This document shows, one piece after another, positions 1-25,724 of a stretch of 64,000 bases of DNA. The position numbers and the translations under genes are program-made. The stretch's first letter is position 1. The number at the start of each line of letters is the position of its first letter. The stretch is from the NCBI RefSeq assembly GCF_988242995.1, contig NZ_OZ547043.1, one strand, 5' to 3'. The notes beneath the pieces are model-generated. The model was not told the DNA's origin, ran no database searches, and saw only the letters and a list, made by a program, of their open reading frames with translations.

Positions 1-195
1 ATCCAGTGAAGACACGAGGGGATTTTCTCCGCTTCCTTCTGCCTGGCGGCGGGCGATTTCACCGCGCATGGCGGTTACGATAAATCCGGCATTGCTTTCA
101 CCGTCCAGCTTAACGGATTCCATCCCTTGCATAACATCTAGTGGGACTCTGACAGTTGTCAGTTGTGATTTTGCGTTTTTGTTAGCCGTTGCCAT
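1..195 (-). CDS. Ribbon-helix-helix (Arc/CopG-like) putative repressor, 3'-truncated by window start
   Basis: Reverse-strand ORF starting at ATG 195-193 with AGGAG RBS; translation MATANKNAKSQLTTVRVPLDVMQGMESVKLDGESNAGFIVTAMRGEIARRQ... fits the RHH pattern (N-terminal beta-strand TVRVP then two helices). Not in the ORF track because it runs off the window. Confidence 0.5.
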   Translation of the reverse strand, partial: MATANKNAKSQLTTVRVPLDVMQGMESVKLDGESNAGFIVTAMRGEIARRQAEGSGENPLVSSLD

Positions 196-261
196 TTCTG
201 AAACTCCTAATCATCGGTGTGTTTCAGTATACACAAAAAAAGAAATACAAAAAGCCTTGAC

Positions 262-294
262 GTGTGTTTCATGCGCTCATAACATGAAACACAC
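262..294. promoter_or_regulatory. Perfect inverted repeat (gtgtgtttcatg N9 catgaaacacac) overlapping a TTGACG-N17-TAACAT-like promoter; candidate operator
   Basis: Read directly from sequence; lies between the divergent RHH gene and the rightward small-gene/primase operon. Confidence 0.45.
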
Positions 295-575
295 CGAAAG
301 GATTGTTGAAATACAAAGAGCAACGCCCCGCAGTGCTGGGAACACATACGGGGCGTCTAACCAACAACGTAAACTAGGAGCCGTTATGGTTGCTGTAAAT
401 CATATACCACACCTTGTACACACACAAACGGCCTTTGTGTGGCGTTTTCTGGCACTGAGTGCCGGAGAATCTCAAATCATCCACGTAACCGCCTGGACGG
501 AACGCGAAGCGCGTAGCCGTTGCCCGTCCGGTTGTGTTGCTGTATTCGCTGCAAAAATCCGCCAGGGAGTGAGTC

Positions 576-761
576 ATGCTTAAAACCTTCCGTGTATTTG
601 CCCGAGCTGTTAACCCAATAGGCCACACAATTGGTATCGCTCAGAATGTGAAGGCTGTTAATGTTCAGACGGCTATTGCTGCGGTGAGAAGCGAATCATC
701 AGAATATGGCTTATCACAAGTCATTATTTCAGCAGTGTATGAATTAAAAGAGGTGCATTAA
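576..761 (+). CDS. Hypothetical small protein (61 aa), first gene of primase operon
   Basis: ORF with GGGAG RBS; stop overlaps next start (TAATG). Confidence 0.4.
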   Translation: MLKTFRVFARAVNPIGHTIGIAQNVKAVNVQTAIAAVRSESSEYGLSQVIISAVYELKEVH

Positions 762-952
762 TGCAGGAAATCACATTACACGAAGCCGCTGAACGTGCGC
801 ACCAGACAGAAATTATTTGCCGCCTTCTTGAGGTATATCCGAACAAAATTACAGATGCTGATATATCCGCGCTGGCGAGCCTACTGGCGCGCCTTTCGGG
901 AAGTGTCGCTAGTTTCCTCATTGAGGAAGAAAGTAAGCTGGTGGGGGATTAA
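761..952 (+). CDS. Hypothetical small protein (63 aa)
   Basis: ORF with AAAGAGG RBS, translationally coupled to flanking genes. Confidence 0.45.
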   Translation: MQEITLHEAAERAHQTEIICRLLEVYPNKITDADISALASLLARLSGSVASFLIEEESKLVGD

Positions 953-1174
953 ATGAATACAGAACGGGAAGTCTTTTTTAAATTGTTAGCATGTGCAGAA
1001 AGTTCATTAACTTTAAATAATTCAGCAAAAGCAATATTAAATATGTGGCTTGATTGCATAAATGACAATGAAGATGCAAATATTGCTTATGGCCTGTTGT
1101 CACTTATTGATGAATCAGCAGAAAAACTCAATGACGCAATAAATAGTGCCCTGCTATCAAATAAGTCGAGTTAA
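953..1174 (+). CDS. Hypothetical small protein (73 aa)
   Basis: ORF starts immediately after previous stop; GGGGGA RBS. Confidence 0.45.
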   Translation: MNTEREVFFKLLACAESSLTLNNSAKAILNMWLDCINDNEDANIAYGLLSLIDESAEKLNDAINSALLSNKSS

Positions 1175-1191
1175 GTCGAGGAATAAATAAT

Positions 1192-1491
1192 ATGGAAATG
1201 AAAAATTCTGGCTTTATTGCCAGCGGCCCCGCTCGGCCTGAATTTATGAACGGCGATATTTACCGCGATAAATACGGCGGCACGGTAACGATTAAAGGCG
1301 TGGCAGAACGGCGCATCACTTACCGCCGTGAGGGGTATAGCTATGACTGCGTGATGCCTGTTTATCAGTTCCGGCGTGATTTTTCCCTGGTATATGCCGC
1401 ACCCCGCAGTAAGCCCATCAGCAGGGAAAAAGCGCGGGGAAACATCCAGAAAATGAAAAGCATGATTAACGCATTCAGGGGCAAAAAATGA
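1192..1491 (+). CDS. Hypothetical protein (99 aa)
   Basis: ORF with GAGGAA RBS; stop overlaps primase start (ATGA). Confidence 0.45.
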   Translation: MEMKNSGFIASGPARPEFMNGDIYRDKYGGTVTIKGVAERRITYRREGYSYDCVMPVYQFRRDFSLVYAAPRSKPISREKARGNIQKMKSMINAFRGKK

Positions 1492-3239
1492 AACTGGCAC
1501 CGAACTTAAAAAAACAGCCACGCGACAGACTGACAGAGGTAATCATCTTTGCAGGTAGTGATGCGTGGAGCCATGCGAAAGAGTGGCGGGAATGGGCGGG
1601 TAAACATATTGCCGCCGACGATGTGCCGCCTGTCGTGCTGGCTGATGAGCAACTGAAAAATATCACCGATTACCGGATCATTGATGAAGATCGTCAGTGT
1701 GTGCGTGTTTACCGCGCAGGACATATCACAGAGCACAGCATGACGCAGATTGTTACGTTACTGGCTGTGGCTGGAGTGAAGACCGTACACGAATACGCGG
1801 GGATTACTGACACCAGCCCAGTGGATTTATCCGAGCAGTTGCCGCGACTCAAAGAGGAATGCGAGCGTGGGGAAAGTCTGGTGCTTAATCTTCCGACGAA
1901 GCAAAAGGCGCAACTTTCACAGATGGCAGACAGTGAACGTGCACAACTACTTGCCGATCGCTTTGATGGTGTGTGTGTTCATGCAGAAAGTGAAATCGTC
2001 CACGTATGGCGCGGCGGGGTATGGTGTCCGGTCAGCACAATGGAGCTGAGCCGCGAAATGGTGGCGATCTATTCAGAGCACAGGGCCACGTTCAGCAAAC
2101 GTGTAATCAATAACGCCGTGGAAGCGTTAAAAGTTATTGCCGACCCCATGGGGGAGCCGTCCGGTGATTTGCTACCGTTCACTAATGGTGTGCTTAACCT
2201 GAAAACGGGGGAATTTTCTCCGCACTCGCCGGAGCACTGGAGCACCACGCACAATGGCATTGAGTACACGCCACCAGTAGCAGGGGAAAACATCCGCGAT
2301 AATGCGCCAAATTTCCATAAATGGCTTGAACATGCTGCAAGAAAAGACCCGCGCAAGATGATGCGTATATGTGCCGCGTTATACATGATTATGGCGAACC
2401 GCTACGACTGGCAGATGTTCATTGAGGCCACCGGAGACGGGGGAAGCGGTAAGAGTACATTTACCCATATTGCCACCCTGCTTGCTGGCAAACAGAACAC
2501 CGTAAGCGCGGAGATGACATCACTCGATGATGCAGGAGGGCGCGCGCAGGTTGTCGGGAGTCGTCTTATCGTCCTTGCCGATCAGCCGAAATATACGGGG
2601 GAAGGCACGGGCATCAAGAAAATCACGGGAGGCGATCCCGTTGAAATTAACCCGAAATATGAGAAGCGATTCACGACGATAATAAGGGCGGTGGTACTGG
2701 CAACCAATAACGACCCGATGATCTTTACCGAACGGGCCGGAGGTGTGTCACGCCGTCGGGTGATTTTCCGGTTCGACAACATTGTAAGGGAGGACGAAAA
2801 AGACAAGGAATTACCGGAAAAGATAGCGGCAGAAATCCCCGTAATTATCCGCCGCTTGCTGGCTAATTTTGCTGACCCTGAAAAGGCACGGGCTTTATTA
2901 CTGGAACAGCGTGACGGTGATGAAGCTCTGGCAATAAAGCAGCAAACGGATCCGGTTGTTGAGCTTTGCGCGGCGCTGGAGTTTCTGGAGGAAGCTCGTG
3001 GGCTAATGATGGGCGGTGGTGGTGACACCGTGAAGTACACGACCAGAAACAGCCTTTACCGTGTCTATATGGCCTTCATGGCATACACAGGAAAGGGGAA
3101 ATGTTTGAGCGTGAATGAGTTCGGAAAGGCTATGAGGTCAGCGGCGAAAGTTTACGGATATGAATATATTACGCGAAAAGTTAAGGGAGTCACGCAGACC
3201 AACGCAACGACTACTGATGATTGCGATGCGTTTTTATAA
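1488..3239 (+). CDS. Replication primase-helicase of satellite/PICI type (P4 alpha-like, D5-family P-loop NTPase)
   Basis: 583-aa ORF with Walker A motif GDGGSGKST in the central domain; followed directly by an iteron cluster, as in P4 alpha/crr. Confidence 0.7.
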   Translation: MKLAPNLKKQPRDRLTEVIIFAGSDAWSHAKEWREWAGKHIAADDVPPVVLADEQLKNITDYRIIDEDRQCVRVYRAGHITEHSMTQIVTLLAVAGVKTVHEYAGITDTSPVDLSEQLPRLKEECERGESLVLNLPTKQKAQLSQMADSERAQLLADRFDGVCVHAESEIVHVWRGGVWCPVSTMELSREMVAIYSEHRATFSKRVINNAVEALKVIADPMGEPSGDLLPFTNGVLNLKTGEFSPHSPEHWSTTHNGIEYTPPVAGENIRDNAPNFHKWLEHAARKDPRKMMRICAALYMIMANRYDWQMFIEATGDGGSGKSTFTHIATLLAGKQNTVSAEMTSLDDAGGRAQVVGSRLIVLADQPKYTGEGTGIKKITGGDPVEINPKYEKRFTTIIRAVVLATNNDPMIFTERAGGVSRRRVIFRFDNIVREDEKDKELPEKIAAEIPVIIRRLLANFADPEKARALLLEQRDGDEALAIKQQTDPVVELCAALEFLEEARGLMMGGGGDTVKYTTRNSLYRVYMAFMAYTGKGKCLSVNEFGKAMRSAAKVYGYEYITRKVKGVTQTNATTTDDCDAFL

Positions 3240-3249
3240 AAAATGGCAA

Positions 3250-3485
3250 TGGTTATCTACCTTGTCTACCTGACTGAAAGAAAATACTTTTATTTCAATG
3301 TATTAATGCAGGTAGATAACTATTTTTCACTGTCTACCTGTTATCTACCTTATCTACCCATTTTTGTAGACAGGTAAGGAGACGGGTAGAGATGAGGTAG
3401 ACAGCTATTTGGGGCTGTCTACCTCCCTGAAACCCGCGCCATTACTGGCCTGATAACTAATCAGGTAGACAAGGTAGACAAGGTG
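3250..3485. repeat. Iteron cluster (about 11 copies of 8-bp GGTAGACA / TGTCTACC motif in both orientations); putative replication origin
   Basis: Seen directly: cttgtctacc, caggtagataac, ctgtctacctgttatctaccttatctaccc, gtagacaggt, gaggtagacagc, ggctgtctacctcc, caggtagacaaggtagacaagg. Confidence 0.7.
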
Positions 3486-3528
3486 GTGGTGCACAAAAAA
3501 CTTTTTAAACGAGGGGGTAAAAATAAAA

Positions 3529-3786
3529 ATGCACACATCAGGAAAACTGAACAAACATATAAAGCCACATTACCGCGCCCTTGATATGGCTGAACACTGG
3601 CTAAGGGTGGCGATTAAGGCAATAGACCGCAACGCCGGGGAAGGATACGCGAAAGCACATCCCGAACTGATAAGCGCATTCATGACAACGGCGGCTGCAA
3701 ACTTTGCCACGCTGACCGAACGGGAGATTGCTGAAGCGGAGGAAGTGACAACAATCAATATTAAGTCCGGAGAGCAGGCAGCATGA
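3529..3786 (+). CDS. Hypothetical protein (85 aa)
   Basis: ORF with GGGGGT RBS; stop overlaps next start. Confidence 0.4.
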   Translation: MHTSGKLNKHIKPHYRALDMAEHWLRVAIKAIDRNAGEGYAKAHPELISAFMTTAAANFATLTEREIAEAEEVTTINIKSGEQAA

Positions 3787-4232
3787 CGGCGCAAATATCA
3801 GTTTACGGGCGGTTGGTGGACGACCCGCAGACAAAACAGACCAGCAAGGGCACCCCCATGACGCTGGCGCGTATGGCGGTATCACTGCCCTGCAGTCAGT
3901 CGGATGACGGTCTGGCGACGTTGTGGTTATCTGTCCTGGCGTTTGGCAGACAAGCCGACGCGCTGGCAAAGCATCACAAAGGCGAACTCCTGAGCGTGGC
4001 GGGTAACATGCAGATGAGCCAGTGGACTGGACAGAACGGCGAAACGCGGCAGGGCTGGCAGGTTATCGCAGACAGCGTAATCAGTGCGCGATCGGTGCGA
4101 CCGGGCGGCAAAAAAGGCCAACAGGGGCAGGCTACTGACGCACTGAACAGAGCAAAACAACAGGCAGATCAGCAAGGAAGCCAGCCACCAGAGGGAGATA
4201 ATGAGCAATGGGGAGATGATATCCCGTTTTAA
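3783..4232 (+). CDS. Divergent single-stranded DNA-binding (SSB-like, OB-fold) protein with acidic C-terminal DDIPF tip
   Basis: 149-aa ORF; OB-fold-like core, Gly/Gln-rich linker, and C-terminus ...EGDNEQWGDDIPF matching the canonical SSB partner-binding tail. Confidence 0.6.
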   Translation: MTAQISVYGRLVDDPQTKQTSKGTPMTLARMAVSLPCSQSDDGLATLWLSVLAFGRQADALAKHHKGELLSVAGNMQMSQWTGQNGETRQGWQVIADSVISARSVRPGGKKGQQGQATDALNRAKQQADQQGSQPPEGDNEQWGDDIPF

Positions 4233-4248
4233 ATATTGCCAATAAAAA

Positions 4249-4276
4249 AAGCCGGAAAAAATAAATTTTCCGGCAT
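4249..4276. terminator. Stem-loop gccggaaaa/ttttccggc after SSB-like gene; orientation ambiguous
   Basis: 9-bp inverted repeat with A-run upstream and T-run within/after the stem. Confidence 0.3.
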
Positions 4277-4448
4277 GCTACATAAATCCCGACCAAAGGG
4301 AGTGAAGATATTAACACTAATTGTCCGCACTGAAGTTGTCACCCCAAAACTTTATACAACATTGCACTCGGTTGCATGTGTTCGCATGACAAATATCGGT
4401 GATAGCATATATCCACAATTATTTTTAATGAATGCAAAGAGGATGCGT

Positions 4449-5489
4449 ATGGTTGATTTATATTCGCCTACTCAGCTTGTACAGGTAGTTAATGCTGTAG
4501 ATGTACAAAAACAACTAAATGCGTTATTTACCAGTTTGTTTTTTACTCGCTCGGTAATGTTTGAATCGCGCGATATTATTCTTGATACAATCGACGATCC
4601 AAATATCCCAATTGCAGCGTTTTGTTCTCCTATGGTGGGTAGTAAAGTTTCACGTGACGAAGGGTACGAATCAAAAACAATTCGTCCAGGCTATATGAAG
4701 CCGAAAAGCAGCATTGATCCAAATAAGTTAGCTGTGCGCCCTGCTGGTGTGTCACCTGAGCAATACAATGCTTTTGGGGCGCGTAATATTAAAGTTAAAC
4801 AGGCGATTGTAAATCAGGCTAAAGCTATTCGTGCACGTATTGAATGGCTTGCTGTTCAGGCAATCACAACGGGGAAAAATATCATTGAGGGCGATGGTAT
4901 TGAACGTTATGAGCTGGACTGGAATATAAAACCACAAAATATCATCACTCAGTCTGGCGGTACTGAGTGGTCAGGTAAGGATAAAGAAACTTTTGATCCA
5001 AATGATGATATTGAGAGCTACGCAGAATTTAGTGAGGGCGTCACTAATATCATCATTATGGGTGGTAATGTATGGAAGAAATACCGTTCATTCAGAGCGA
5101 TAAAAGAGGCTTTGGATACCCGTCGTGGTTCTAATTCCGAACTGGAAACGGCCCTTAAAGACCTTGGTGATTCGGTGAGTTTTAAAGGGTATATGGGCGA
5201 TGTTGCGATTGTTGTTTACAGCGGGCGTTATACCGACGAGGACGGAACAGAAAAACATTTCCTTGATCCTGATTTGATGGTGCTTGGCAATACGGCTCTT
5301 CAGGGGATTGTCGCCTATGGCGGTATTCAGGATCCGGAGCTAATCCGAATGGGGCTGACTAAAGCCGAACTTGCACCGAAAAACTATATTGTGCCTGGTG
5401 ATCCGGCTATTGAATATGTGCAGACACATTCAGCACCACAGCCAATACCGGCCCGCATCAATCGTTTTGTTACCGTTCGCATTGGCTAA
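4449..5489 (+). CDS. Major capsid protein, lambda gpE family (divergent paralog, about 50 percent identity to lambda E over the C-terminal half)
   Basis: Start chosen at MVDLYSPTQL with AAGAGGA RBS (the track ORF begins upstream at 4236). Shares blocks ITQSGGTEWS, LDTRRGSNSELETA, GDVAIVVYSG with lambda E. Confidence 0.8.
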   Translation: MVDLYSPTQLVQVVNAVDVQKQLNALFTSLFFTRSVMFESRDIILDTIDDPNIPIAAFCSPMVGSKVSRDEGYESKTIRPGYMKPKSSIDPNKLAVRPAGVSPEQYNAFGARNIKVKQAIVNQAKAIRARIEWLAVQAITTGKNIIEGDGIERYELDWNIKPQNIITQSGGTEWSGKDKETFDPNDDIESYAEFSEGVTNIIIMGGNVWKKYRSFRAIKEALDTRRGSNSELETALKDLGDSVSFKGYMGDVAIVVYSGRYTDEDGTEKHFLDPDLMVLGNTALQGIVAYGGIQDPELIRMGLTKAELAPKNYIVPGDPAIEYVQTHSAPQPIPARINRFVTVRIG

Positions 5490-5498
5490 GGGGGAGCA

Positions 5499-5840
5499 AT
5501 GGCTACTCATTACACTGAACTCATGGCTGGCACTGAAGCACTGGTGACTACGCTGGGGATATTTTCAGCTAATAAAGGGGTAATTCCTGCATTTACGCCA
5601 CTGATGCAGGAAGATGCAACAGGTGCACTGGTGGTATGGGATGGTTCGAGCGTAGGTAAAGCGGTTTATGTTTCCGCTGTACAAATCGACACCGCGAAAA
5701 AAACACAGGCTCAGGTCTATAAGACAGGTGTCTTAAATGTTGATGCTCTGAACTGGCCTGAGTCTGTTAAAGAACTGTCAGTAAAGGTTGCAGCGTTTGT
5801 TGGCTCAGGTATTTCTGTTCAGCCGCTGGCTCGTGTGTAA
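5499..5840 (+). CDS. Head decoration protein, lambda gpD family
   Basis: 113-aa ORF; TPLMQEDATGALVVWDGSS...AAFVGSGISVQ aligns with lambda D TPLMLDTSSRKLVAWDGTT...TAFAGTAISIV. Confidence 0.7.
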   Translation: MATHYTELMAGTEALVTTLGIFSANKGVIPAFTPLMQEDATGALVVWDGSSVGKAVYVSAVQIDTAKKTQAQVYKTGVLNVDALNWPESVKELSVKVAAFVGSGISVQPLARV

Positions 5841-5851
5841 AGGGGGATACA

Positions 5852-6235
5852 ATGCAGAATGATTACAATGACCTTAAGCCAATTGCCGAAATGATGTACC
5901 CGAATCCAGCTGTAGAGGAATTAAAAGCTATCGCTGACAAAATGTGTTTAAGCGAGCGCCTTGTTGATATGAATCAGGTGATGGAAATTACAACCCTGAG
6001 TCGTCGTACACTGCTAAACCTTGAGGCTAGTGGAGAGTTCCCGGAGCGTGTGCAGGTTACGGAAGGGCGTAAGGCCTGGTATTTAAGTGAAGTGATCGAC
6101 TGGATAAATAATATTCCTCGCGCTTCTGAATATTGCCGCGTACCTGTCCCAAAAAAGCCAGATGCGGCGCTATGCCTCAAGATTGAGCGTGTACGCCGCA
6201 ATGCACGGGATGGTCGCTATAAGCTGATTGGTTGA
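5852..6235 (+). CDS. AlpA/excisionase-like HTH regulator
   Basis: 127-aa ORF; central segment MNQVMEITTLSRRTLLNLEASGEFPERVQVTEGRKAWYLSEVIDWINN resembles AlpA-family phage regulators. Confidence 0.55.
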   Translation: MQNDYNDLKPIAEMMYPNPAVEELKAIADKMCLSERLVDMNQVMEITTLSRRTLLNLEASGEFPERVQVTEGRKAWYLSEVIDWINNIPRASEYCRVPVPKKPDAALCLKIERVRRNARDGRYKLIG

Positions 6236-6397
6236 TGAAATTAGGGCCCGCTCTGGCTGGCGGGTCCTTTCCGGTGATCCAGAACGTTACGGGGCGTCAG
6301 GCGCGCAGATTCTTGCTATTTATGACAATTTTCTGCGATTTGCCGTTTCCGTTCTTCTTCCTCGTAACTTAGTGTTTTTACTAGAAATACCCTCTAA

Positions 6398-6448
6398 AAA
6401 GAAAGGAAATGACAGGTGCTGAAAACAGGCTTTTGGGTCTCCGTCATT
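6398..6448. terminator. Stem-loop (aaaggaaatgac ... gtcatttccttt) followed by T-rich tract
   Basis: 12-bp inverted repeat read directly, after the alpA-like gene. Confidence 0.4.
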
Positions 6449-6687
6449 TCCTTTCTCATTTTTATCTAAAAGTAAGCATCGAGGCCACCCCAAATGCTTA
6501 TAGAGGTTATTGTGTCACTATGCGTACTGTTCAGGATTTAAAGTAGCAAGACATCTAGTTGCTTGCAGTTTTGGCGAATGATGTGAGGTTCTCTATAACA
6601 GATAATGTAACAAGTTACTGATATATTCTGTTATGGTTGACTTTAAATTTTGTTGCTCCTTCAATGAATTATTGAGGGGTAAAAATT

Positions 6688-6713
6688 AGGCGTGATAAGA
6701 ATCGATCACGCCT
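6688..6713 (-). terminator. Rho-independent terminator for the 438-aa gene
   Basis: aggcgtgat/atcacgcct 9-bp stem immediately 3' of the minus-strand stop, followed on that strand by AATTTTTA. Confidence 0.45.
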
Positions 6714-6718
6714 ATTGT

Positions 6719-8035
6719 TTATCTTGAAGAAATTTTAGGCAGGCTTTTTAAAAATAAATCTTTATTTCTACTTGCATCAGTTAAAAGTGTTAGGAATATT
6801 TTATCTGTAGGAGTGCATGTGCTCTTGTTTAACAGTAATTCACCAAGTTTCTGTAATCGAGAGAATTGCCCATCCTCTTGGATTCTGTGACGAAGTGTAC
6901 TATCATTTTTAATAACATCAACAAATGCAGAAACCATGTTAATATCAAAGTGTTCAAACATTTCCAATATTAAAGGTGCAGCCCCATTTGAATAAAAATT
7001 CTTCCTTCCATACTGATAGCTGAAACCACGATGGCCAACATAAGTTTTTGTAATGGCTGAAACAAATTCAACAATATTATCTTCAGGGACGAAACTCGAG
7101 AATGGTAATAATTGGGTTACGATTTTTTCCTCTTCTGACCAATTATCTAAAGACTCGGTGAGTTTATTAATGAGAGGCTCAATAATAACTTTTCGGGATG
7201 CAGGGCTAATATACATCAGTCCATCTACCAATAGTATGAATTGTTGTGCCTTCTCTATCTTATTGTTGTTTCCTGAAACTAAATACTTGTCAAATTGTTG
7301 GCCGACTTTACGTCGGTCGTCTTTTGAAAGTAATGTCCATAAAATAGGTGCGCAAAATTCAATGTTGTTTCTGAGTTCACTTGATATATTGGATGAGCAG
7401 TATGTGCCAAAAAAACGAGAGGATAATTCACTGATATAAATTGCAGGTAGATCTGAAAAGGCTTGCTTAACTGCCAGACTATTTTTATTAAATGTTGCCG
7501 AATCCATTTCTGAAAGATATGTAGTTATATCTATGATGGCTGGTGGAAACTCTTTAGAAAGAACGTATTTATTACAATCATTAATCAGGTTCACTACTTT
7601 GATTAAATCAGGGTCGCTACTTTGTGGATGTCCACCAAATAGATTCCTGGTTTCTCTAGCTTGTTGTAATAGTTTCTGACCTTCTCGATCGATAACTCCT
7701 ATTTTAAATGCTCCATCTATTAAATCAAAGTCGCTCACATAATCCTGAAAATCTTCATACGTTTTAATTTCTTTTTTTTGTTTACACTCTTTGTTGAATA
7801 GATCTAGGCTACGATGAATTATCTTTTGACGTAAATCATCAACTACAGCATTCCAGTAAGCAGTGATGGCACTTCTATAACCTTTTACAGGAAGAACTCT
7901 TATTGCTTCTGAAATATATGGGCAGTCAACTACATCATGCCTCACAGTTGAGAGCGCAGTTTGTAACAATGTAACTTCTGTAGAGTCTAGTGGAGTTGGC
8001 TGCACTAAATGAGAACTTATCTCTGTACCCTTCAT
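6719..8035 (-). CDS. 438-aa hypothetical protein with N-terminal HEPN-like Rx5H motif (R130-N-L-F-G-G-H136); candidate abortive-infection/defence protein
   Basis: Long ORF on the opposite strand in a visibly AT-rich 2-kb block with its own upstream region and terminator; no similarity to phage structural or housekeeping proteins that I recognise. Confidence 0.5.
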   Translation of the reverse strand: MKGTEISSHLVQPTPLDSTEVTLLQTALSTVRHDVVDCPYISEAIRVLPVKGYRSAITAYWNAVVDDLRQKIIHRSLDLFNKECKQKKEIKTYEDFQDYVSDFDLIDGAFKIGVIDREGQKLLQQARETRNLFGGHPQSSDPDLIKVVNLINDCNKYVLSKEFPPAIIDITTYLSEMDSATFNKNSLAVKQAFSDLPAIYISELSSRFFGTYCSSNISSELRNNIEFCAPILWTLLSKDDRRKVGQQFDKYLVSGNNNKIEKAQQFILLVDGLMYISPASRKVIIEPLINKLTESLDNWSEEEKIVTQLLPFSSFVPEDNIVEFVSAITKTYVGHRGFSYQYGRKNFYSNGAAPLILEMFEHFDINMVSAFVDVIKNDSTLRHRIQEDGQFSRLQKLGELLLNKSTCTPTDKIFLTLLTDASRNKDLFLKSLPKISSR

Positions 8036-8391
8036 TTCAGGATTTTCCTATTCTTTTCCATTTTTCTACTCTATTGAATTTGAAAAAGATATCAAGTTCG
8101 TTCTTGCCAGTTTTAAGTGGAAAATTTGATGTTACCTTATTGAGATAAGGCAGTTCTCTATAACCTATTGTTATTAATTATTTTTATTTTTTTCCAATTC
8201 AGATGTTTAGGGCTAAGAAGTTAAGTGAGAGTTCACAGCAAAACTGCTTCTAGTTCCTCACCGAGGAGCAAAAGGTTAAGACAGCGTACTTTGTATTGCA
8301 CAATGTATTGCAGAACCTTCTTTCGAAAGCTACAACAATCAATTTTATATTGAAAATTCAATCATATCCTTTCGATATTGACTCATATAAC

Positions 8392-9179
8392 CCAAGCATG
8401 AGGTGAATCCGCAGATGACCCTGCGTCGCCTGCCGGATGAAGATCCGCAGAATCTGGCGGACCCGGCTTACCGCCGCCGTCGCATCATTATGCAGAACAT
8501 GCGTGACGAAGAGCTGGCCATTGCCCAGGTCGAAGAGATGCAGGCAGTTTCTGCCGTGCTTAAGGGCAAATACACCATGACCGGTGAAGCTTTCGATCCG
8601 GTTGAGGTGGATATGGGCCGCAGTGCGGCCAACAACATCACGCAGTCCGGCGGCACGGAGTGGAGCAAGCGTGACAAGTCCACGTATGACCCGACCGACG
8701 ATATCGAAGCCTACGCGCTGAACGCCAGCGGAGTGGTGAATATCATCGTGTTTGATCCGAAAGGCTGGGTGCTGTTCCGTTCCTTCAAAGCCGTCAAGGA
8801 GAAGCTGGATACTCGTCGCGGCTCTCATTCCGAGCTGGAGACAGCGGTGAAAGACCTGGGCAAAGCGGTGTCCTACAAGGGGATGTATGGCGATGTGGCC
8901 ATCGTCGTGTATTCCGGACAGTACGTGGAAAACGGCGTCAAAAAGAACTTCCTGCCGGACAACACGATGGTGCTGGGGAACACTCAGGCACGCGGTCTGC
9001 GCACCTATGGCTGCATTCAGGATGCGGACGCACAGCGCGAAGGCATTAACGCCTCTGCCCGTTACCCGAAAAACTGGGTGACCACCGGCGATCCGGCGCG
9101 TGAGTTCACCATGATTCAGTCAGCACCGCTGATGCTGCTGGCTGATCCTGATGAGTTCGTGTCTGTACAACTGGCGTAA
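8392..9179 (+). pseudogene. E: Major capsid gene E, 5'-truncated (about the first 96 codons missing)
   Basis: Translation from ...PKHEVNPQMTLRRLPDEDPQNLADPAYRRRR... to ...DPDEFVSVQLA is near-identical to lambda gpE residues about 97-341; upstream sequence is unrelated AT-rich DNA. Confidence 0.85.
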
Positions 9180-9995: not shown

Positions 9996-10574
9996 ATGGC
10001 CATAAAAGGTCTTGAGCAGGCCATTGAAAACCTCAGCCGTATCAGCAGAACGGCGGTGCCTGGTGCCGCCGCAATGGCCATTAACCGCGTTGCTTCATCC
10101 GCGATATCGCAGTCGGCGTCACAGGTTGCCCGTGAGACAAAGGTACGCCGGAAACTGGTAAAGGAAAGGGCCAGGCTGAAAAGGGCCACGGTCAAAAATC
10201 CGCAGGCCAGAATCAGGGTTAACCGGGGGGATTTGCCCGTAATCAGGCTGGGTAACGCGCGGGTTGTCCTTTCGCGCCGCAGGCGTCGTAAAAAGGGGCA
10301 GCGTTCATCCCTGAAAGGTGGCGGCAGCGTGCTTGTGGTGGGTAACCGTCGTATTCCCGGCGCGTTTATTCAGCAACTGAAAAATGGCCGGTGGCATGTC
10401 ATGCAGCGTGTGGCCGGGAAAAACCGTTACCCCATTGATGTGGTGAAAATCCCGATGGCGGTGCCGCTGACCACGGCGTTTAAACAAAATATTGAGCGGA
10501 TACGGCGTGAACGTCTTCCGAAAGAGCTGGGCTATGCGCTGCAGCATCAACTGAGGATGGTAATAAAGCGATGA
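9996..10574 (+). CDS. Z: Minor tail protein Z
   Basis: 192-aa ORF matching lambda gpZ. Confidence 0.9.
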   Translation: MAIKGLEQAIENLSRISRTAVPGAAAMAINRVASSAISQSASQVARETKVRRKLVKERARLKRATVKNPQARIRVNRGDLPVIRLGNARVVLSRRRRRKKGQRSSLKGGGSVLVVGNRRIPGAFIQQLKNGRWHVMQRVAGKNRYPIDVVKIPMAVPLTTAFKQNIERIRRERLPKELGYALQHQLRMVIKR

Positions 10575-10661
10575 AACATACTGAACTCCGTGCAGCCGTA
10601 CTGGATGCACTGGAGAAGCATGACACCGGGGCGACGTTTTTTGATGGTCGCCCCGCTGTTT

Positions 10662-11372
10662 GTGCACAGAAAACCCCCAGCTAGGCTGGGGGTTCCGGAA
10701 AGCTTTCAGCTTTGAGCCAGTTATTAAAACCCCTTTTGATTTGTTAAAACACCTTGCGGTCTGGCAACTGCAAGTGTCAAACAAGAAATCAAAAGGGGGT
10801 CCCAATGGGGAACGAAAAGAGCTTAGCGCACACCCGATGGAACTGTAAATATCACATAGTTTTTGCGCCAAAATACCGAAGACAGGTGTTCTACAGAGAG
10901 AAGCGTAGAGCAATAGGCAGTATTTTGAGAAAGCTGTGTGAGTGGAAAAGCGTACGGATTCTGGAAGCTGAATGCTGTGCAGATCATATCCATATGCTTG
11001 TGGAGATCCCGCCCAAAATGAGCGTATCCGGGTTTATGGGATATCTGAAAGGGAAAAGCAGTCTGATGCTTTACGAGCAGTTTGGTGATTTGAAATTCAA
11101 ATACAGGAACAGGGAGTTCTGGTGCAGAGGGTACTACGTCGATACAGTGGGTAAGAACACGGCGAAGATACAGGATTACATAAAGCACCAGCTTGAAGAG
11201 GATAAAATGGGAGAGCAGTTATCGATTCCCTATCCGGGCAGCCCGTTTACGGGCCGTAAGTAACGAAGTTGGATGCAAATGTCAGATCGTGTGCGCCTGT
11301 TAGGGCGCGGCTGGTAAGAGAGCCTTATAGGCGCATTTGAAAAACCTCCGGCTATGCCGGAGGATATTTATT
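10662..11372 (+). mobile_element. IS200 (IS200/IS605 family), about 711 bp, with terminal hairpins
   Basis: Contains the Y1 transposase gene; left-end hairpin cccccagctaggctggggg and right-end hairpin ctccggctatgccggag; boundaries inferred from interruption of lambda U. Confidence 0.8.
10805..11263 (+). CDS. tnpA: IS200 transposase TnpA (Y1/HUH)
   Basis: MGNEKSLAHTRWNCKYHIVFAPKYRRQVFY...HIHMLVEIPPK... matches IS200 TnpA (152 aa). Confidence 0.9.
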   Translation: MGNEKSLAHTRWNCKYHIVFAPKYRRQVFYREKRRAIGSILRKLCEWKSVRILEAECCADHIHMLVEIPPKMSVSGFMGYLKGKSSLMLYEQFGDLKFKYRNREFWCRGYYVDTVGKNTAKIQDYIKHQLEEDKMGEQLSIPYPGSPFTGRK

Positions 11373-11684
11373 TTGATGAGGCGGATTTTCCGGCAGTTGC
11401 CGTTTATCTCACCGGCGCTGAATACACGGGCGAAGAGCTGGACAGCGATACCTGGCAGGCGGAGCTGCATATCGAAGTTTTCCTGCCTGCTCAGGTGCCG
11501 GATTCAGAGCTGGATGCGTGGATGGAGTCCCGGATTTATCCGGTGATGAGCGATATCCCGGCACTGTCAGATTTGATCACCAGTATGGTGGCCAGCGGCT
11601 ATGACTACCGGCGCGACGATGATGCGGGCCTGTGGAGTTCAGCCGATCTGACTTATGTCATTACCTATGAAATGTGAGGACGCT

Positions 11685-12425
11685 ATGCCTGTACCAAATC
11701 CTACAATGCCGGTGAAAGGTGCCGGGACCACACTGTGGGTTTATAAGGGGAACGGTGACCCTTATGCGAACCCGCTTTCAGACGTGGACTGGTCGCGTCT
11801 GGCAAAAGTTAAAGACCTGACGCCCGGCGAACTGACCGCTGAGTCCTATGACGACAGCTATCTCGATGATGAAGATGCGGACTGGACTGCGACCGGGCAG
11901 GGGCAGAAATCAGCCGGAGATACCAGCTTCACGCTGGCGTGGATGCCCGGAGAGCAGGGGCAGCAGGCGCTGCTGGCGTGGTTTAATGAAGGTGATACCC
12001 GTGCCTATAAAATCCGCTTCCCGAACGGCACGGTCGATGTGTTCCGTGGCTGGGTCAGCAGTATCGGTAAAGCGGTGACGGCGAAGGAAGTGATCACCCG
12101 CACGGTGAAGGTCACCAATGTGGGACGCCCGTCGATGGCAGAAGATCGCAGCACGGTCACAGCGGCAACCGGCATGACCGTGACGCCTGCCAGCACCTCG
12201 GTGGTGAAAGGGCAGAGCACGACGCTGACCGTGGCATTCCAGCCGGAAGGCGCAACCGACAAGAGCTTCCGTGCGGTGTCTGCGGATAAAACAAAAGCCA
12301 CCGTGTCGGTCAGTGGTATGACCATCACCGTGAAAGGTGTTGCTGCAGGCAAGGTCAACATTCCGGTCGTATCCGGTAATGGTGAACTTGCTGCGGTTGC
12401 AGAAATCAACGTTACCGCCAGTTAA
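11685..12425 (+). CDS. V: Major tail protein V
   Basis: [22 protein letters not shown]... matches lambda gpV; C-terminal Ig-like domain present. Confidence 0.9.
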
Positions 12426-21200: not shown

Positions 21201-21600
21201 AACAGTGGGCAAAGCTTTCCCCCGTGACTCCCGGGCACCGGAGCGGTGGCCATCAGGGACCATTACCGTCAGGGTTTATGACGATCAGCCGTTTGACCGG
21301 CAAATTGTTATTCCGGCGGTGGCATTCAGTGGCGCTAAGCATGAGAGAGAGCATACTGATATTTACTCCTCATGCCGTCTGATAGTGCGGAAAAACGGTG
21401 CTGAAATTTATAACCGTACCGCGCTGGATAATACGCTGATTTACAGTGGCGTTATTGATATGCCTGCCGGTCACGGTCACATGACACTGGAGTTTTCGGT
21501 GTCAGCATGGCTGGTAAATGGCTGGTATCCCACAGCAAGTATCAGCGATTTGCTGGTTGTTGTGATGAAGAAAGCCACTGCAGGCATCACGATTAGCTGA
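18205..21600 (+). CDS. J: Central tail fibre / host specificity protein J
   Basis: 1131-aa ORF matching lambda gpJ (lambda J is 1132 aa). Confidence 0.9.
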
Positions 21601-21618
21601 ATTTTATAACCCAGATAC

Positions 21619-21644
21619 GGGCACCAGAAATGGTGCCTTTTTTA
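21619..21644 (+). terminator. Rho-independent terminator after J (ggcacc...ggtgcc + TTTTTT)
   Basis: Read directly from sequence. Confidence 0.5.
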
Positions 21645-21667
21645 TTGCAGAAAAGCGAGAGGTAATT

Positions 21668-22267
21668 ATGCGTAAATTATGTGCTGTTATTCTGTCCGCA
21701 GTAGTCTGGCTGGTTGCCGCTGGTACGCCAGCGAGCGCAGCAGAGCATCAGTCCACACTAAGCGCCGGGTATCTTCAGACCCATACTGATATGCCAGGCA
21801 GTGATGACCTGAAGGGCATTAACGTGAAATACCGTTATGAATTTACGGACATGCTGGGGCTGGTGACGTCATTCAGTTATGCCAATGCCAAAGATGAGCA
21901 AAGAACGCATTACAGCGATACCCGCTGGCATGAAGATTCAGTGCGTAACCGCTGGTTCAGCATGATGGCGGGGCCATCTGTACGCGTGAATGAATGGTTC
22001 AGTGCTTATGCGATGGCAGGTGTGGCTTACAGCCGTGTTTCGACGTTCTCCGGGGATTATCTCCGCGTAACTGACAACAAGGGGAAAACGCACGATGTGC
22101 TGACCGGAAGTGATGACGATCGCCACAGCAACACGTCTCTGGCGTGGGGAGCTGGCGTGCAGTTTAACCCGACCGAATCCGTGGCCATTGATATTGCTTA
22201 TGAAGGCTCCGGCAGTGGCGACTGGCGCACTGACGGTTTCATCGTGGGTGTCGGTTATAAGTTCTGA
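21668..22267 (+). CDS. lom: Outer membrane protein Lom (Ail/Lom family)
   Basis: 199-aa ORF with signal peptide; matches lambda Lom. Confidence 0.85.
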   Translation: MRKLCAVILSAVVWLVAAGTPASAAEHQSTLSAGYLQTHTDMPGSDDLKGINVKYRYEFTDMLGLVTSFSYANAKDEQRTHYSDTRWHEDSVRNRWFSMMAGPSVRVNEWFSAYAMAGVAYSRVSTFSGDYLRVTDNKGKTHDVLTGSDDDRHSNTSLAWGAGVQFNPTESVAIDIAYEGSGSGDWRTDGFIVGVGYKF

Positions 22268-22293
22268 TTAGCCAGGTAACACAGTGTTATGAC

Positions 22294-22321
22294 AGCCCGC
22301 CGGTTCAGGCGGGCTTTTTTG
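22294..22321 (+). terminator. Rho-independent terminator after lom (gcccgcc...ggcgggc + TTTTTT)
   Basis: Read directly from sequence. Confidence 0.55.
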
Positions 22322-22325
22322 TGGA

Positions 22326-24722
22326 GTGGATATGGCAGCAGTAAAAATCTCAGGTGTGCTGAAAGATGGTGCGGGAAAACCAATACAGAACTGCACTATT
22401 CAACTGAAGGCAAAGCGTAACAGCACCACGGTACTGGTGAACACGGTGGCTTCTGAAAATCCGGATGAAGCCGGACGTTACAGCATGGATGTTGAGTATG
22501 GCCAGTACAGCGTCACCCTGCTGGTTGAAGGTTTTCCGCCTTCACATGCCGGGACCATTACCGTCTATGAAGGCTCCAGACCAGGTACGCTGAATGATTT
22601 TCTCGGTGCCATGACGGAAGATGATGTCATGCCGGAGGCATTGCGTCGTTTTGAGGCAATGGTGGAAGAAGCGGCACACAACGCTGAAGCCACCTTTCAG
22701 AGCGCAGCGGCGGCAAAGAAATCCGAAGCTGCTGCGGCATCATCGAAGAACGCGGCGAAAAGCTCAGAAACGAATGCAGCTAACAGCGCACAGGCGGCAG
22801 CGGCCTCACAGACTGCATCGGCAAACTCCGCGACAGCAGCCCAAAAATCAGAAGCCAACGCGAAAAATAGCGAAACAGCCGCAAAGACGAGCGAAACCAA
22901 CGCGAAGTCCAGCCAGACGGCAGCGAAAACCAGCGAAACGAATGCCAAAACCAGTGAAACTGCGGCGAAAAGCAGTCAGGCTGCAGCAGCCGAAAGCGAG
23001 AGTGCTGCAGCCGGTTCTGCGACTTCAGCAGCTGGATCAGCAACTGCTGCGGCTAACAGCCAGAAAGCAGCGAAGACGAGCGAAACTAACGCAAAGTCCA
23101 GCCAGACGGCAGCGAAGACCAGCGAAACGAATGCCAAAGCCAGCGAAACTGCGGCGAAAAACAGTCAGGATGCAGCGGCCCAAAGCGAGAGTGCCGCAGC
23201 TGGTTCTGCAAGTGCGGCGGCTTCTTCTGCCACTGCATCAGCCAACAGTCAAAAAGCTGCAAAAACCAGTGAAACCAACGCAAAGGCGAGCGAGACTGCG
23301 GCGGCGAACTCGGCGCAAGCATCGGCAGCAAGCCAGACAGCAGCTAAAGCAAGTGAAGACGCAGCCAGAGAGTATGCAAGCCAGGCAGCGGAGCCGTATA
23401 AACAAGTTTTGCAGCCGTTGCCCGATGTGTGGATACCGTTTAATGATTCACTGGATATGATTACGGGCTTTTCGCCATCATATAAAAAAATTGTTATTGG
23501 TGACGATGAAATAACGATGCCTGGCGACAAGATTGTTAAGTTTAAACGTGCATCAACGGCTACATATGTCAATAAATCCGGGGAACTGAAAATTGTAGCA
23601 ATCGACGAACCACGATTTGAAAAAGATGGTTTACTGATTGAAGGCCAACGAAGCAATTCATTTGCAGATTCTAATAATCCGTCGTTATGGAATAAAGCCG
23701 CACAATTGAATATAACCAATGGCAAAGATGAATTTGGTTTTACCTATGGTCTTATTAATGTTGTAGCCGAAACAAGCACTACCGGACGCGCTACATTTAT
23801 TTCAACTGGATATCCAAGATCAATGCCAGCAAAGGCAGGGGAATCTCTTACAATATCCTTCCGAGTTAAAAAAGTTGCTGGTGATGGGGTTCTGACAGTA
23901 TATCCGAGGATTGCTTATGTAAATGATGATGGCTCTAGTAATACTCTTTCTTCGAATGCCTATATAAATGCGGAAACGGGCGAAGTTTTAGGAACTCCTG
24001 CAGGCGGAAGCTCGACGAAAGTATATACTAAAATTGAATCCAATGGATGGTTGTTTGTATCTTTGACTTATAAAACCGCAGAAGACAAAACATTTTATGG
24101 TCGAATTGAAGTTGGTGCACATAAACGAGATATACAGATTGGTGATCAGTGGATGATAACGACACCGCAATTTGAAGTTGGTAGCAGTGCTTCTTCTTTT
24201 ATTATTTCTGGATCTGCGACAACGACAAGAGCGAGTGATTTAGTTACAATCCCGATCAAAAACAATATCTACAATTTACCGCTTACTGTAATGTGCGAAA
24301 CTAATCTTAATTGGGAATGGGATTCTCCGCCAAATGCCGCACCTAGAATAATGGATTTTACGGGTCAAAAAGCGGGGCAGGCCATAATTTATGGTCTACG
24401 TGGTGGGACTGCGGTTGATACTGGATCGCCCTATGTTGATATGGGTGATGGCGCTACAAGAATTAATAAGTATGTAAAAACAACAAATCGAAAGTTTATC
24501 TCTGGCTTTAGGTGTAAAGAAAATGGAGATACTCAAGCGTTTTGTAATTCTGTTTTTTCATCGTCTGCAAGGACAGATTATATTCATGTAGCACCAACTG
24601 CAACGATAAGATTTGGTGGGCAAACCAGTACGGGTGAGCGTCATATATTCGGACACATCCGAAATTTCAGGATTTGGCATAAAGCGTTAACTGATGCACA
24701 AATGGGGGAGAGTATTAAATGA
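22326..24722 (+). CDS. stf: Side tail fibre protein, mosaic: lambda Stf-like N-terminus, Ala/Ser/Thr-rich tandem-repeat shaft, unrelated AT-rich C-terminal domain
   Basis: N-terminus MDMAAVKISGVLKDGAGKPIQNCTIQLKAKRNSTTVLVNTV... matches lambda Stf; C-terminal about 440 aa (from ...QPLPDVWIPFNDSLD) has no lambda Stf similarity and lower GC. Confidence 0.8.
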   Translation: MDMAAVKISGVLKDGAGKPIQNCTIQLKAKRNSTTVLVNTVASENPDEAGRYSMDVEYGQYSVTLLVEGFPPSHAGTITVYEGSRPGTLNDFLGAMTEDDVMPEALRRFEAMVEEAAHNAEATFQSAAAAKKSEAAAASSKNAAKSSETNAANSAQAAAASQTASANSATAAQKSEANAKNSETAAKTSETNAKSSQTAAKTSETNAKTSETAAKSSQAAAAESESAAAGSATSAAGSATAAANSQKAAKTSETNAKSSQTAAKTSETNAKASETAAKNSQDAAAQSESAAAGSASAAASSATASANSQKAAKTSETNAKASETAAANSAQASAASQTAAKASEDAAREYASQAAEPYKQVLQPLPDVWIPFNDSLDMITGFSPSYKKIVIGDDEITMPGDKIVKFKRASTATYVNKSGELKIVAIDEPRFEKDGLLIEGQRSNSFADSNNPSLWNKAAQLNITNGKDEFGFTYGLINVVAETSTTGRATFISTGYPRSMPAKAGESLTISFRVKKVAGDGVLTVYPRIAYVNDDGSSNTLSSNAYINAETGEVLGTPAGGSSTKVYTKIESNGWLFVSLTYKTAEDKTFYGRIEVGAHKRDIQIGDQWMITTPQFEVGSSASSFIISGSATTTRASDLVTIPIKNNIYNLPLTVMCETNLNWEWDSPPNAAPRIMDFTGQKAGQAIIYGLRGGTAVDTGSPYVDMGDGATRINKYVKTTNRKFISGFRCKENGDTQAFCNSVFSSSARTDYIHVAPTATIRFGGQTSTGERHIFGHIRNFRIWHKALTDAQMGESIK
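22883..23300 (+). repeat. About 189-bp tandem repeat (2 copies plus a partial third) inside stf
   Basis: Near-identical DNA blocks starting aagacgagcgaaac...; protein repeat AAKTSETNAKSSQTAAKTSETNAK... Confidence 0.7.
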
Positions 24723-25000
24723 AAGATTTAACACTAAAATTTTCTGACAGGGCCGACTTTTCGGCCTTTATGGATAGCATTGGCTATTATGATGACGAGT
24801 CGATGCAGGATGATATTCTCATTGACGTGATAGGTAACGTGTACAAAGAAACCGGAGAACTGAATGAAGATGGCGAACCGGTATGTGTTAAGGAAGACGG
24901 ATATTTTGTAAACGTGCGCATCATTAATGATGTGAAAACACCGTCAATATTCGATGAATACGTGGTTGCTGTTGAGCATCAACTTCGTGGCTGGATGTGA
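24719..25000 (+). CDS. Hypothetical acidic protein (93 aa) downstream of stf
   Basis: ATGA overlap with stf stop; no recognisable family. Confidence 0.4.
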   Translation: MKDLTLKFSDRADFSAFMDSIGYYDDESMQDDILIDVIGNVYKETGELNEDGEPVCVKEDGYFVNVRIINDVKTPSIFDEYVVAVEHQLRGWM

Positions 25001-25009
25001 GGAAGAAAA

Positions 25010-25699
25010 ATGGCTACATCGACAGTAATTCCGGGAGACATTACCACGCTAAAGGGAGATGTCAGTAAAGCTAAGGAAGATATTTCCTCAATTAACGGAA
25101 AAGTATCAACGCTTCAGACTGATATGACCAGTGCAAAGCAGGATATCAGCACCAGATACACAAAAACTGAAGTTGATAATAAGCTGAAAAACAAAGTGGA
25201 AGTGAACGATCTGGAAAGTGGTCGTTATGGCGGAGATTTTTACCCGCTGACTGGCCGTGAAGCGTTTTATTTATGGGGATTGGGCACAACTACAGCGGCG
25301 GCAAATCTTTATCTTAATCCTGACCCTGCAATTTCGTCTGTGCTGCGGTCAACATCGTCTATCCGCTATAAACATTCAGTAGAGACGATAGATTCAGAGC
25401 ACGCCGATCTCATTTTCAAGATGCGCCCTGTATGGTACAGGTCGCAATGCGAAAATGACAGGCGCGGTTGGGGATTCTATGGATTGATTGCCGAGGAAGT
25501 AGGAGAAATTGCCCCTCAGTTTGTACACTGGCGACCAGCTAACGAGAATGATGCTCCTGAAGCTATTTCCAGCAATGGCCTTGTTGCCGAAGGTGTAATG
25601 TACGAACGTCTGGTTGTTCCACTGATTCACCATATCCAGAAACTGACTGAAAGAGTTGAAGAACTTGAGTCAGAATTAAAGTTGTTATCAACTTCCTGA
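25010..25699 (+). CDS. Short tail-fibre-like protein: N-terminal coiled coil plus C-terminal intramolecular-chaperone (peptidase S74-like) domain
   Basis: 229-aa ORF; C-terminal segment SSIRYKHSVETIDSEHADLIFKMRPVWYR...GFYGLIAEEVGEIAPQFV...GLVAEGVMYERLVVPLIHHIQKLTERVEELE resembles autoproteolytic chaperone domains of phage fibres and endosialidases. Confidence 0.55.
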   Translation: MATSTVIPGDITTLKGDVSKAKEDISSINGKVSTLQTDMTSAKQDISTRYTKTEVDNKLKNKVEVNDLESGRYGGDFYPLTGREAFYLWGLGTTTAAANLYLNPDPAISSVLRSTSSIRYKHSVETIDSEHADLIFKMRPVWYRSQCENDRRGWGFYGLIAEEVGEIAPQFVHWRPANENDAPEAISSNGLVAEGVMYERLVVPLIHHIQKLTERVEELESELKLLSTS

Positions 25700-25724
25700 A
25701 GCGATATTGGATAAAGGAGGAGTA

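Follow-up and report, generated by a model that had tools for sequence, protein, structure and literature searches.

The closest described relatives of the element studied here are IS200 and IS200C of Salmonella and Escherichia coli, which are the same element and share with it the left-end terminator hairpin, the STnc490 structure, a TnpA of 152 amino acids and the right-end hairpin. Salmonella IS200 measures 707 bp (PMC4513863), compared to 711 bp here with the boundaries that we used, and otherwise only the location differs. Nucleotides 12-34 of the Salmonella element form a bidirectional terminator hairpin, a stem-loop in the 5'UTR hides the Shine-Dalgarno sequence, and in laboratory work IS200 is notorious for its inactivity (PMC4513863). 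IS1541 of Yersinia pestis has a left-end hairpin identical to that of IS200C in all 23 nt, and in Y. pestis NCTC5923 dozens of its sites show the target pattern of IS200C, with a hairpin and then a T-run that ends in TT. In a comparison of ends and flanks, IS1541 was distinguished by its first bases (GTGCCCAG, compared to GTGCACAG in IS200C) and by its high copy number in Yersinia. One Yersinia IS1541, between pheL and pheA, lies in the region that carries the attenuator (PMC3082878).

IS608 of Helicobacter pylori and ISDra2 of Deinococcus radiodurans have a homologous TnpA and subterminal hairpins, and likewise lack inverted repeats and target duplications. Unlike IS200C, which is without tnpB and appears to have as its target a hairpin and a degenerate T-run ending in TT, both elements carry tnpB and use a fixed target, which for ISDra2 is TTGAT. 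The target of IS608 is TTAC (PMC5027513). In both systems, TnpA binds the subterminal hairpins of one strand, excises a circle and reseals the donor precisely; the circle then enters single-stranded DNA 3' of the short target, preferentially on the lagging-strand template, and the target is read by a guide tetranucleotide located 5' of the left-end hairpin (PMC6006769, PMC5027513).

Two further systems recognise hairpins. Group IIC introns land at sites of this type, inserting immediately 3' of a Rho-independent terminator stem-loop or that of attC, at a TTGT/T-like motif (PMC7923331), but they are retroelements that recognise their target as RNA/RNP, by a mechanism unrelated to that of IS200C. 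The TnpA-REP (RAYT) proteins are Y1 HUH relatives of IS200 TnpA that recognise extragenic hairpins. In contrast to IS200-group elements, they are domesticated single-copy genes and require a GTAG foot on REP hairpins (PMC6006769), whereas the target hairpins collected here have no sequence in common.

Here we analysed a stretch of 64,000 nt, referred to as the window, which from position 9996 onwards contains a lambda-type tail module. We are confident that IS200C has inserted into gene U of a lambda-like prophage at a non-random site consisting of a hairpin and a T-run, thereby splitting gpU, and that precise excision would restore the gene. IS200C itself is already known, two RefSeq genomes have the same arrangement in U, annotated there as a split pseudogene, and as a gene knockout the event is ordinary. 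What our analysis adds is a terminator mimic within U, recurrent hits at this site and a general hairpin and T-run rule, all of which have good statistical support. The gene and its neighbours are arranged as follows.

9996..10574, plus strand: Z, an intact tail gene (lambda Z residues 1-192 by tblastn, 97.9%; ORF list)
10571..10661, plus strand: 5' part of U, codons 1-30 and the first base of codon 31
11373..11677, plus strand: 3' part of U, from the rest of codon 31 to the stop
11685..12425, plus strand: V, the tail tube gene, intact (lambda V residues 1-246 by tblastn, 98%)

The 3' end of Z overlaps the U start codon at 10571, as in lambda. Alignment to lambda U showed no mismatches over nt 1-91 of the gene (window 10571-10661) and a single synonymous difference, T>C at nt 349, over nt 92-396 (window 11373-11677). 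This agrees with a preliminary description of the locus, in which U was said to read normally for 30 codons and to resume exactly at the next codon after an insert of about 711 bp. At the protein level, the break separates V30, the last residue of ...GRPAV, from F31, the first of FDEADFPAV.... The left and right matches to lambda U are 91 nt and 307 nt long, giving 398 nt for a gene of 396 nt, and this 2-nt overlap (TT) sets the insert at 711 bp and shows that there is no target duplication, as the preliminary description had also stated. Since TT is found on both sides, the insert can be placed at 10662-11372 or at 10660-11370, and the cleaved bond may accordingly lie at either of two positions that are 2 nt apart.

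When we deleted 10662-11372 in silico, the result was a 396-nt ORF with a product identical to lambda gpU in 131 of 131 residues, and the reconstituted site was identical to the empty site both in lambda and in the E. coli genome XSLGL-2. The earlier remark that the tail module depends on precise excision is therefore apt, given that excision in this family is precise. The reconstituted protein matches PDB entries 1z1z and 3fz2 ('minor tail protein U', E ~1e-85), and its gene is placed between intact Z and V, as expected for the tail terminator gene. In the window as it stands, the 131-codon frame is broken after codon 30.

The insert is a member of the IS200 group of the IS200/IS605 family in all of the sequence features that were tested, and consists of the following parts.

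10662..11372, plus strand: IS200C, 711 bp, GTGCACAG...TATTTATT, with 0/711 differences from annotated copies and boundaries that can be shifted 2 nt to the left
10672..10694, plus strand: left-end subterminal hairpin AACCCCCAGC-TAG-GCTGGGGGTT (by folding), preceded on its 5' side by AAAA as a candidate guide sequence
10672..10795, plus strand: STnc490, the IS200 5'UTR structure (Rfam RF01405, full length, 146.4 bits, E=2.2e-31, gathering score 56)
10805..11263, plus strand: tnpA, intact, encoding a Y1 HUH transposase of 152 amino acids (NF033573, motifs and PDB homologues)
11345..11363, plus strand: right-end subterminal hairpin CCTCCGGC-TAT-GCCGGAGG (by folding), with AAAAA on its 5' side and ATATTTATT on its 3' side, which ends the element

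Both junctions were clean when aligned to lambda U and to IS200, and over all 711 positions the insert was identical to copies on the chromosomes of E. coli ETEC4067 and BEC1-S17-ESBL-09, the tnpA of which is labelled by NCBI as 'IS200/IS605-like element IS200C family transposase'. We set the boundaries of the element from eight copies with different flanks together with tandem IS1541 copies, in which ...TATTTATT directly abuts GTGCCCAG. TnpA matched the NCBIfam equivalog model transpos_IS200 (NF033573) over its whole length (147.7 bits, cutoff 55, E=1.9e-43), and carries the HUH motif as H61-I-H63 and the catalytic tyrosine in Y125-IKH-Q129 (Y-x3-Q). Its PDB homologues are 2a6m and 2vhg (ISHp608) and 2xm3 (ISDra2), with E values of ~1e-19 to 1e-16, while its match to the REP_Tyr_transpos model was weak (32 bits, below the cutoff of 80). 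In the ORF list, tnpA is the only long sense ORF of the 711 bp, and there is no tnpB.

The termini, GTGCACAG... and ...TATTTATT, are not inverted repeats. The two end hairpins are alike and follow the pattern AAAA-CC(C/T)CC(A/G)GC-TA(G/T)-GC(T/C)GG(G/A)GG, with the right-end hairpin lying 9 nt from the right end of the element. The intact tnpA and the terminal hairpins reported in the preliminary description are thus both present. The STnc490 region takes in the left-end hairpin and a stem-loop that sequesters the tnpA Shine-Dalgarno sequence, with the art200 antisense RNA encoded opposite, a layout of the left-end regulatory RNA that, judged from its sequence, would be that of Salmonella IS200. 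A terminator scan flagged the right-end hairpin on both strands and left the left-end hairpin, which has no T tail, unflagged. We found no second copy of IS200 in the 64,000-nt window, where the 23-nt left-end hairpin gave a single exact match. A hit to Rfam Ysr202 (28 bits, gathering score 315) was dismissed as a partial resemblance to the right end of the IS.

We examined the position at which IS200C entered the gene and found that the element lies directly downstream of a structure encoded within U itself.

10627..10661, plus strand: target structure in U, codons 19-31, with a 9-bp GC-rich stem and an 11-nt loop, followed by CTGTTT up to the insertion point

The stem is formed by CGGGGCGAC (10627-10635) pairing with GTCGCCCCG (10647-10655), and in intact U it is followed by CTGTTTTT. 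Hairpin and tail together resemble an intrinsic terminator, and may be regarded as a mimic of one. Folded as DNA, the lambda U segment gave -12.5 kcal/mol (z -3.1), and the opposite strand gave a z of -5.0. With a loop of 11 nt, above the limit of 8 nt in the simple terminator scan, the U hairpin went unflagged there. A loop of this length exceeds that of a typical terminator. On both strands of the lambda genome there are only 7 strict hairpin and T-run sites, six of which are intergenic (I/J, the 35.8-kb and 40.6-kb hairpins on both strands each, and 45.0 kb), leaving the U site as the only one within structural-gene coding sequence. When we checked 80 IMG/VR U loci for covariation, the loci were at least 95% alike in amino acid sequence and the stem hardly varied.

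In support of a broader pattern, the left flanks of other IS200C copies also consist of a GC-rich inverted repeat and then T's directly before the element. In a first set, comprising E. coli and IMG/VR loci with the U alleles counted separately, a hairpin and T-run was present in 20 of 22 flanks, and inspection by eye of the two misses revealed imperfect stems or loops above the limit of the scan. We then collected sites from 27 IMG/VR contigs carrying the IS200C left end and from 120 loci with the exact 23-nt left-end hairpin in species-representative genomes, which included Y. pestis IS1541, Vibrio, Brenneria, Dickeya and Edwardsiella as well as MAGs of Bacillota, Desulfovibrionaceae, Peptococcaceae and others. 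A perfect stem of at least 5 bp with at least 3 T in the last 6 nt was present at 134 of 140 distinct sites, compared to 4.8% of 5000 random positions drawn from the same loci. With a perfect stem of at least 7 bp and at least 4 T in the last 6 nt, the figures were 106 of 140 and 0.3%, and stricter criteria in general were satisfied by 0.3-2% of random positions. The flank directly 5' of the left end finished in TT at 138 of the 140 distinct sites, usually inside the T-run, and the distance from stem to element was mostly 3-7 nt, with a mode of 6 nt, which is the value in U. The hairpin and T-run rule is thus well supported statistically. Real terminators between genes account for most of the 140 sites, where the pattern could be reinforced by the survival of insertions that do no harm.

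This last consideration can be taken further, to the position that IS200 uses any T-rich sequence, that its link to hairpins reflects only survival downstream of terminators, and that the hairpin in U is a coincidence. [quoted passage not shown] We nevertheless consider it unlikely. The U insertion lies in coding sequence, yet matches the intergenic sites in its hairpin, its 6-nt spacing and its TT end. A run of six T's in the loop of the U hairpin, about 20 nt upstream of the insertion point, was left unused in all three insertion events analysed in U (see below). Moreover, the spacing is tight, selection by itself would not pin insertions to a single nucleotide, and even the loosest criterion is rarely satisfied at random. 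Part of the intergenic bias must come from harmless insertions having survived, but neither the precision to the nucleotide nor the site within U can be accounted for in this way. The U locus serves as a natural test case, being a coding-sequence insertion at a terminator look-alike in three alleles of the gene, and it argues that the link between IS200 and terminators arises from target choice, beyond the survival of harmless insertions.

To place the window among other genomes, we searched 5426 complete E. coli genomes and found lambda-type U at 5177 places in 3538 of them, with up to 7 per genome. IS200C interrupts U in two, MEW and BEC1-S17-ESBL-09, in both cases after nt 91 of the gene and in the same orientation as in the window. 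The gpU allele of MEW is identical to lambda gpU at 127 of 131 residues and that of BEC1-S17-ESBL-09 at 105 of 131. In the latter genome, the flanks are only ~77% identical to those of the window, with differences starting at -6 and +5 nt from the IS, whereas the IS itself shows 0/711 differences. All three reconstituted U frames, those of the window, MEW and BEC1-S17-ESBL-09, are intact. The 200 nt that flank the IS on either side in the window are 0-1 nt different from the empty sites of lambda and XSLGL-2, but 10 nt different from the filled site of MEW. The closest relatives of the prophage region, XSLGL-2 and at least 9 other genomes, are 99.2% identical to it and share its satellite-like lesion in gene E, and in these U is intact. 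The simplest reading is that of three separate insertions at one position of U, the one in the window being recent.

The alternative is that a single insertion gave rise to all three loci, by descent or by recombination between prophages, which would make its position a historical accident. In favour of such a history are the near identity of the IS copies (0-2 differences in 711) and the free recombination among lambdoid prophages. It is quite improbable all the same, because the flanks of the BEC1-S17-ESBL-09 copy diverge right up to both junctions, the flanks in the window are nearer to empty sites (0-1 per 400 nt) than to the filled one (10 mismatches), and the closest relatives, with the satellite in E already in place, have an empty site. 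In addition, the target rule, derived independently, predicts exactly the site in U. Under our reading of three separate insertions, and since nearly all lambda-type U genes carry the site, U would be a recurrent though rarely used hotspot. With two of the 5426 genomes and none of the 80 IMG/VR U loci occupied by IS200, it is a hotspot only in a relative sense; none of the 27 IMG/VR contigs carrying IS200C contained a U::IS200 junction either. A search of the IS200/IS1541 literature returned neither a nucleotide-precise target rule nor a hotspot in U, and ISfinder, TnPedia or older papers may record either.

These observations led us to a tentative proposal, to which we give somewhat less than even credence, that IS200-group transposases pick their targets by structure, recognising the shape of an intrinsic terminator, in which the TT of a T-run lies about 6 nt beyond a hairpin. 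Transposition would follow the peel-and-paste pathway of the IS200/IS605 family on single-stranded DNA. The four bases 5' of both end hairpins of IS200C are AAAA, and the element itself ends in TATT; by analogy with IS608, it is plausible that, at the TnpA-bound circle junction, the AAAA guide would pair with the target's T-run. The target hairpin may mimic the right end of IS200C, which is itself a hairpin followed by ATATTTATT, 9 nt ending in TT, and so aid binding. This mimicry gains support from the tandem IS1541 copies, which sit directly after the right end of another copy. Alternatively, the hairpin may keep the adjacent T-run accessible in SSB-coated DNA. For IS608, duplex DNA 5' of the target is tolerated in vitro (PMC5027513), which is compatible with either role. 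The window is oriented like MG1655 at cus-fepA and its GC skew is weakly positive in the host part; if the chromosome is collinear with K-12, the top strand of the IS would perhaps lie on the lagging-strand template. Across chromosomal copies, any strand bias relative to replication would be confounded with gene orientation, which terminators themselves follow. Structural targeting, if true, would explain why the long-studied, 'dormant' IS200 is nearly harmless, why tandem copies arise, given that the right end of the IS has the shape of a terminator, and why the terminator mimic in lambda U has been hit repeatedly at the same base.

With respect to the tail, gpU assembles into the hexameric ring that terminates the tail and lies between the tube of gpV and gpFII, and its O-loop (residues 25-37) contacts gpFII (PMC10721106). 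The break caused by IS200C falls inside this loop. The 5' fragment of U reads into the IS as a 37-aa ORF (10571-10684) with its stop at 10684. On the 3' side, the right-end hairpin contains an in-frame ATG (11354), which opens a 107-aa ORF that comprises gpU residues 31-131 and 6 extra residues. Because the 5' fragment stops after 37 codons and the 3' ORF has no ribosome-binding site, loss of gpU function is very likely, leaving the prophage without a tail terminator of its own unless IS200C excises precisely.

One could argue that U function survives, through the 107-aa ORF or the gpU of another prophage, and that the insertion is silent for tails. PGAP calls a similar ORF, starting within the IS, as 'minor tail U family protein' in BEC1-S17-ESBL-09, and with as many as seven lambda-type U genes in one E. 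coli genome, a co-resident lambdoid prophage could supply gpU in trans. We regard such survival as very unlikely, since the ATG at 11354 is preceded by CCTCCGGCT, with no Shine-Dalgarno sequence before it, and is buried in a stable hairpin, the 107-aa fragment lacks beta-1 and half of the gpFII-binding O-loop, and tblastn revealed no second U in the 64,000-nt window. That the whole arrangement is an assembly artefact, with a repeated IS misplaced into U, is scarcely credible: IS copies often cause misassembly, but here neither junction is off by a single base and U is restored exactly, the same structure is present in two complete genomes that were assembled independently, and the site obeys the target rule of the element. 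U in the window is therefore best annotated as a pseudogene split by IS200C, and its 3' fragment should not be called a gene, as it is in one RefSeq record.

Finally, we assessed the prophage as a whole, which had been described as carrying several inactivating lesions. Besides the one in U, we found one further lesion in the window, in the capsid gene E, which is present only from residue 80 (8391-9176) and is occupied by an integrative satellite-like element of ~11 kb. In the rest of the module, tblastn with the lambda proteins showed FI, FII, Z, V, G, T, H, M, L, K, I and J to be full length, at 81-100% identity, with U as the exception. For this genome, the insertion is thus another lesion in an already defective lambda-like prophage and, given the prior defect in E, probably cost the host nothing. 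IS200C also adds two more strong hairpins between Z and V, which under lambda Q antitermination should matter little.

Besides the IS200C copy in its tail-terminator gene U, the defective prophage carries a second insertion that may be of greater interest. Its major capsid gene E is interrupted by an integrative element of approximately 11 kb, located as follows:

Window 1-8390: the integrative element in E; the window begins within it, and the right junction lies at approximately 8380-8392.
Locus L037, 490-11812: the same element in a comparison locus.

In XSLGL-2, an E. coli genome among the closest relatives of this prophage, the element is bordered on both sides by the 10-bp direct repeat AGCCGAAGCA, which corresponds to lambda E nt 236-245. 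The element's genes specify an integrase, HTH/excisionase-like regulators, an Icd-like protein, a DUF5906 primase and an SSB, together with two head proteins of its own: a major head protein (42% amino acid identity versus gpE) and a head decoration protein (38% versus gpD). Ten or more complete E. coli genomes show this arrangement of E and the element, and the insertion looks like a phage satellite that sits, by site-specific integration, in the capsid gene of a helper-type prophage. In addition, window 6304-6463, within the satellite-like element, matches lambda nt 13-173 at 83% identity; we take this lambda segment to be the cosB region, and the likeness suggests that a lambda-type terminase could package the element.

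The prophage also departs from lambda downstream of J (window 21600-26200), where rearrangement or truncation may have affected the side-tail-fibre region:

Within 21600-26200: lom-like sequence, 45% amino acid identity to lambda.
Within 21600-26200: N-terminal part of stf, 60% identity to lambda.
26038-26145: tfa-like sequence, with only 36 residues present.

The host genes at window 40000-64000 comprise rhs/vgrG, cusSRCFBA, pheP, ybdG, nfsB, entD and fepA. Since this segment shares only 97.0% identity with its best match among 5426 complete E. coli genomes, a figure that the variable rhs region may depress, the strain may represent a divergent Escherichia lineage missing from that collection.

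For IS200C, a further lambdoid landing site was found in L008 (E. coli 2022N21-074) and L034 (an IMG/VR contig), where the hairpin TCAGGCCACCATGGTGGCCTGA followed by CTGATT lies between the genes for the head decoration protein and the major capsid protein. In Y. pestis NCTC5923 (L184, L185, L187 and L231), copies of the IS200-group element IS1541 occur in tandem, approximately 710 bp apart, with copy 2 beginning immediately after ...CCGGAGGATATTTATT of copy 1, indicating that the right end of the element itself acts as a target or target mimic. In E. coli BEC1-S17-ESBL-09 (NZ_AP022298.1), where IS200C also interrupts U, RefSeq treats H7R48_RS13635 (L003 3878-4228) as intact and names its 116-aa product a 'phage minor tail U family protein'; the entry is the 3' fragment of split U, lengthened to a start codon within the IS, and its status as an intact U-family gene probably reflects an annotation artefact.

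The exact 23-nt IS200 left-end hairpin AACCCCCAGCTAGGCTGGGGGTT was also found in very distant taxa (L119-L182), in elements whose first 10 bases differ:

Carriers of AACCCCCAGCTAGGCTGGGGGTT: Oxalobacter; Vibrio; MAGs of Bacillota, Mailhella/Desulfovibrio, Peptococcaceae, Saccharibacteria and Elusimicrobiaceae.

The spread of this hairpin reflects either extreme conservation or wide transfer, and the MAG occurrences may include contamination. Finally, the Rfam STnc490 model matches the tnpA-sense strand at window 10672-10795. The published art200/STnc490 RNA is described as antisense to the tnpA 5'UTR (PMC4513863), and the model seems to cover the palindromic 5'UTR region, rather than the strand of the antisense transcript.
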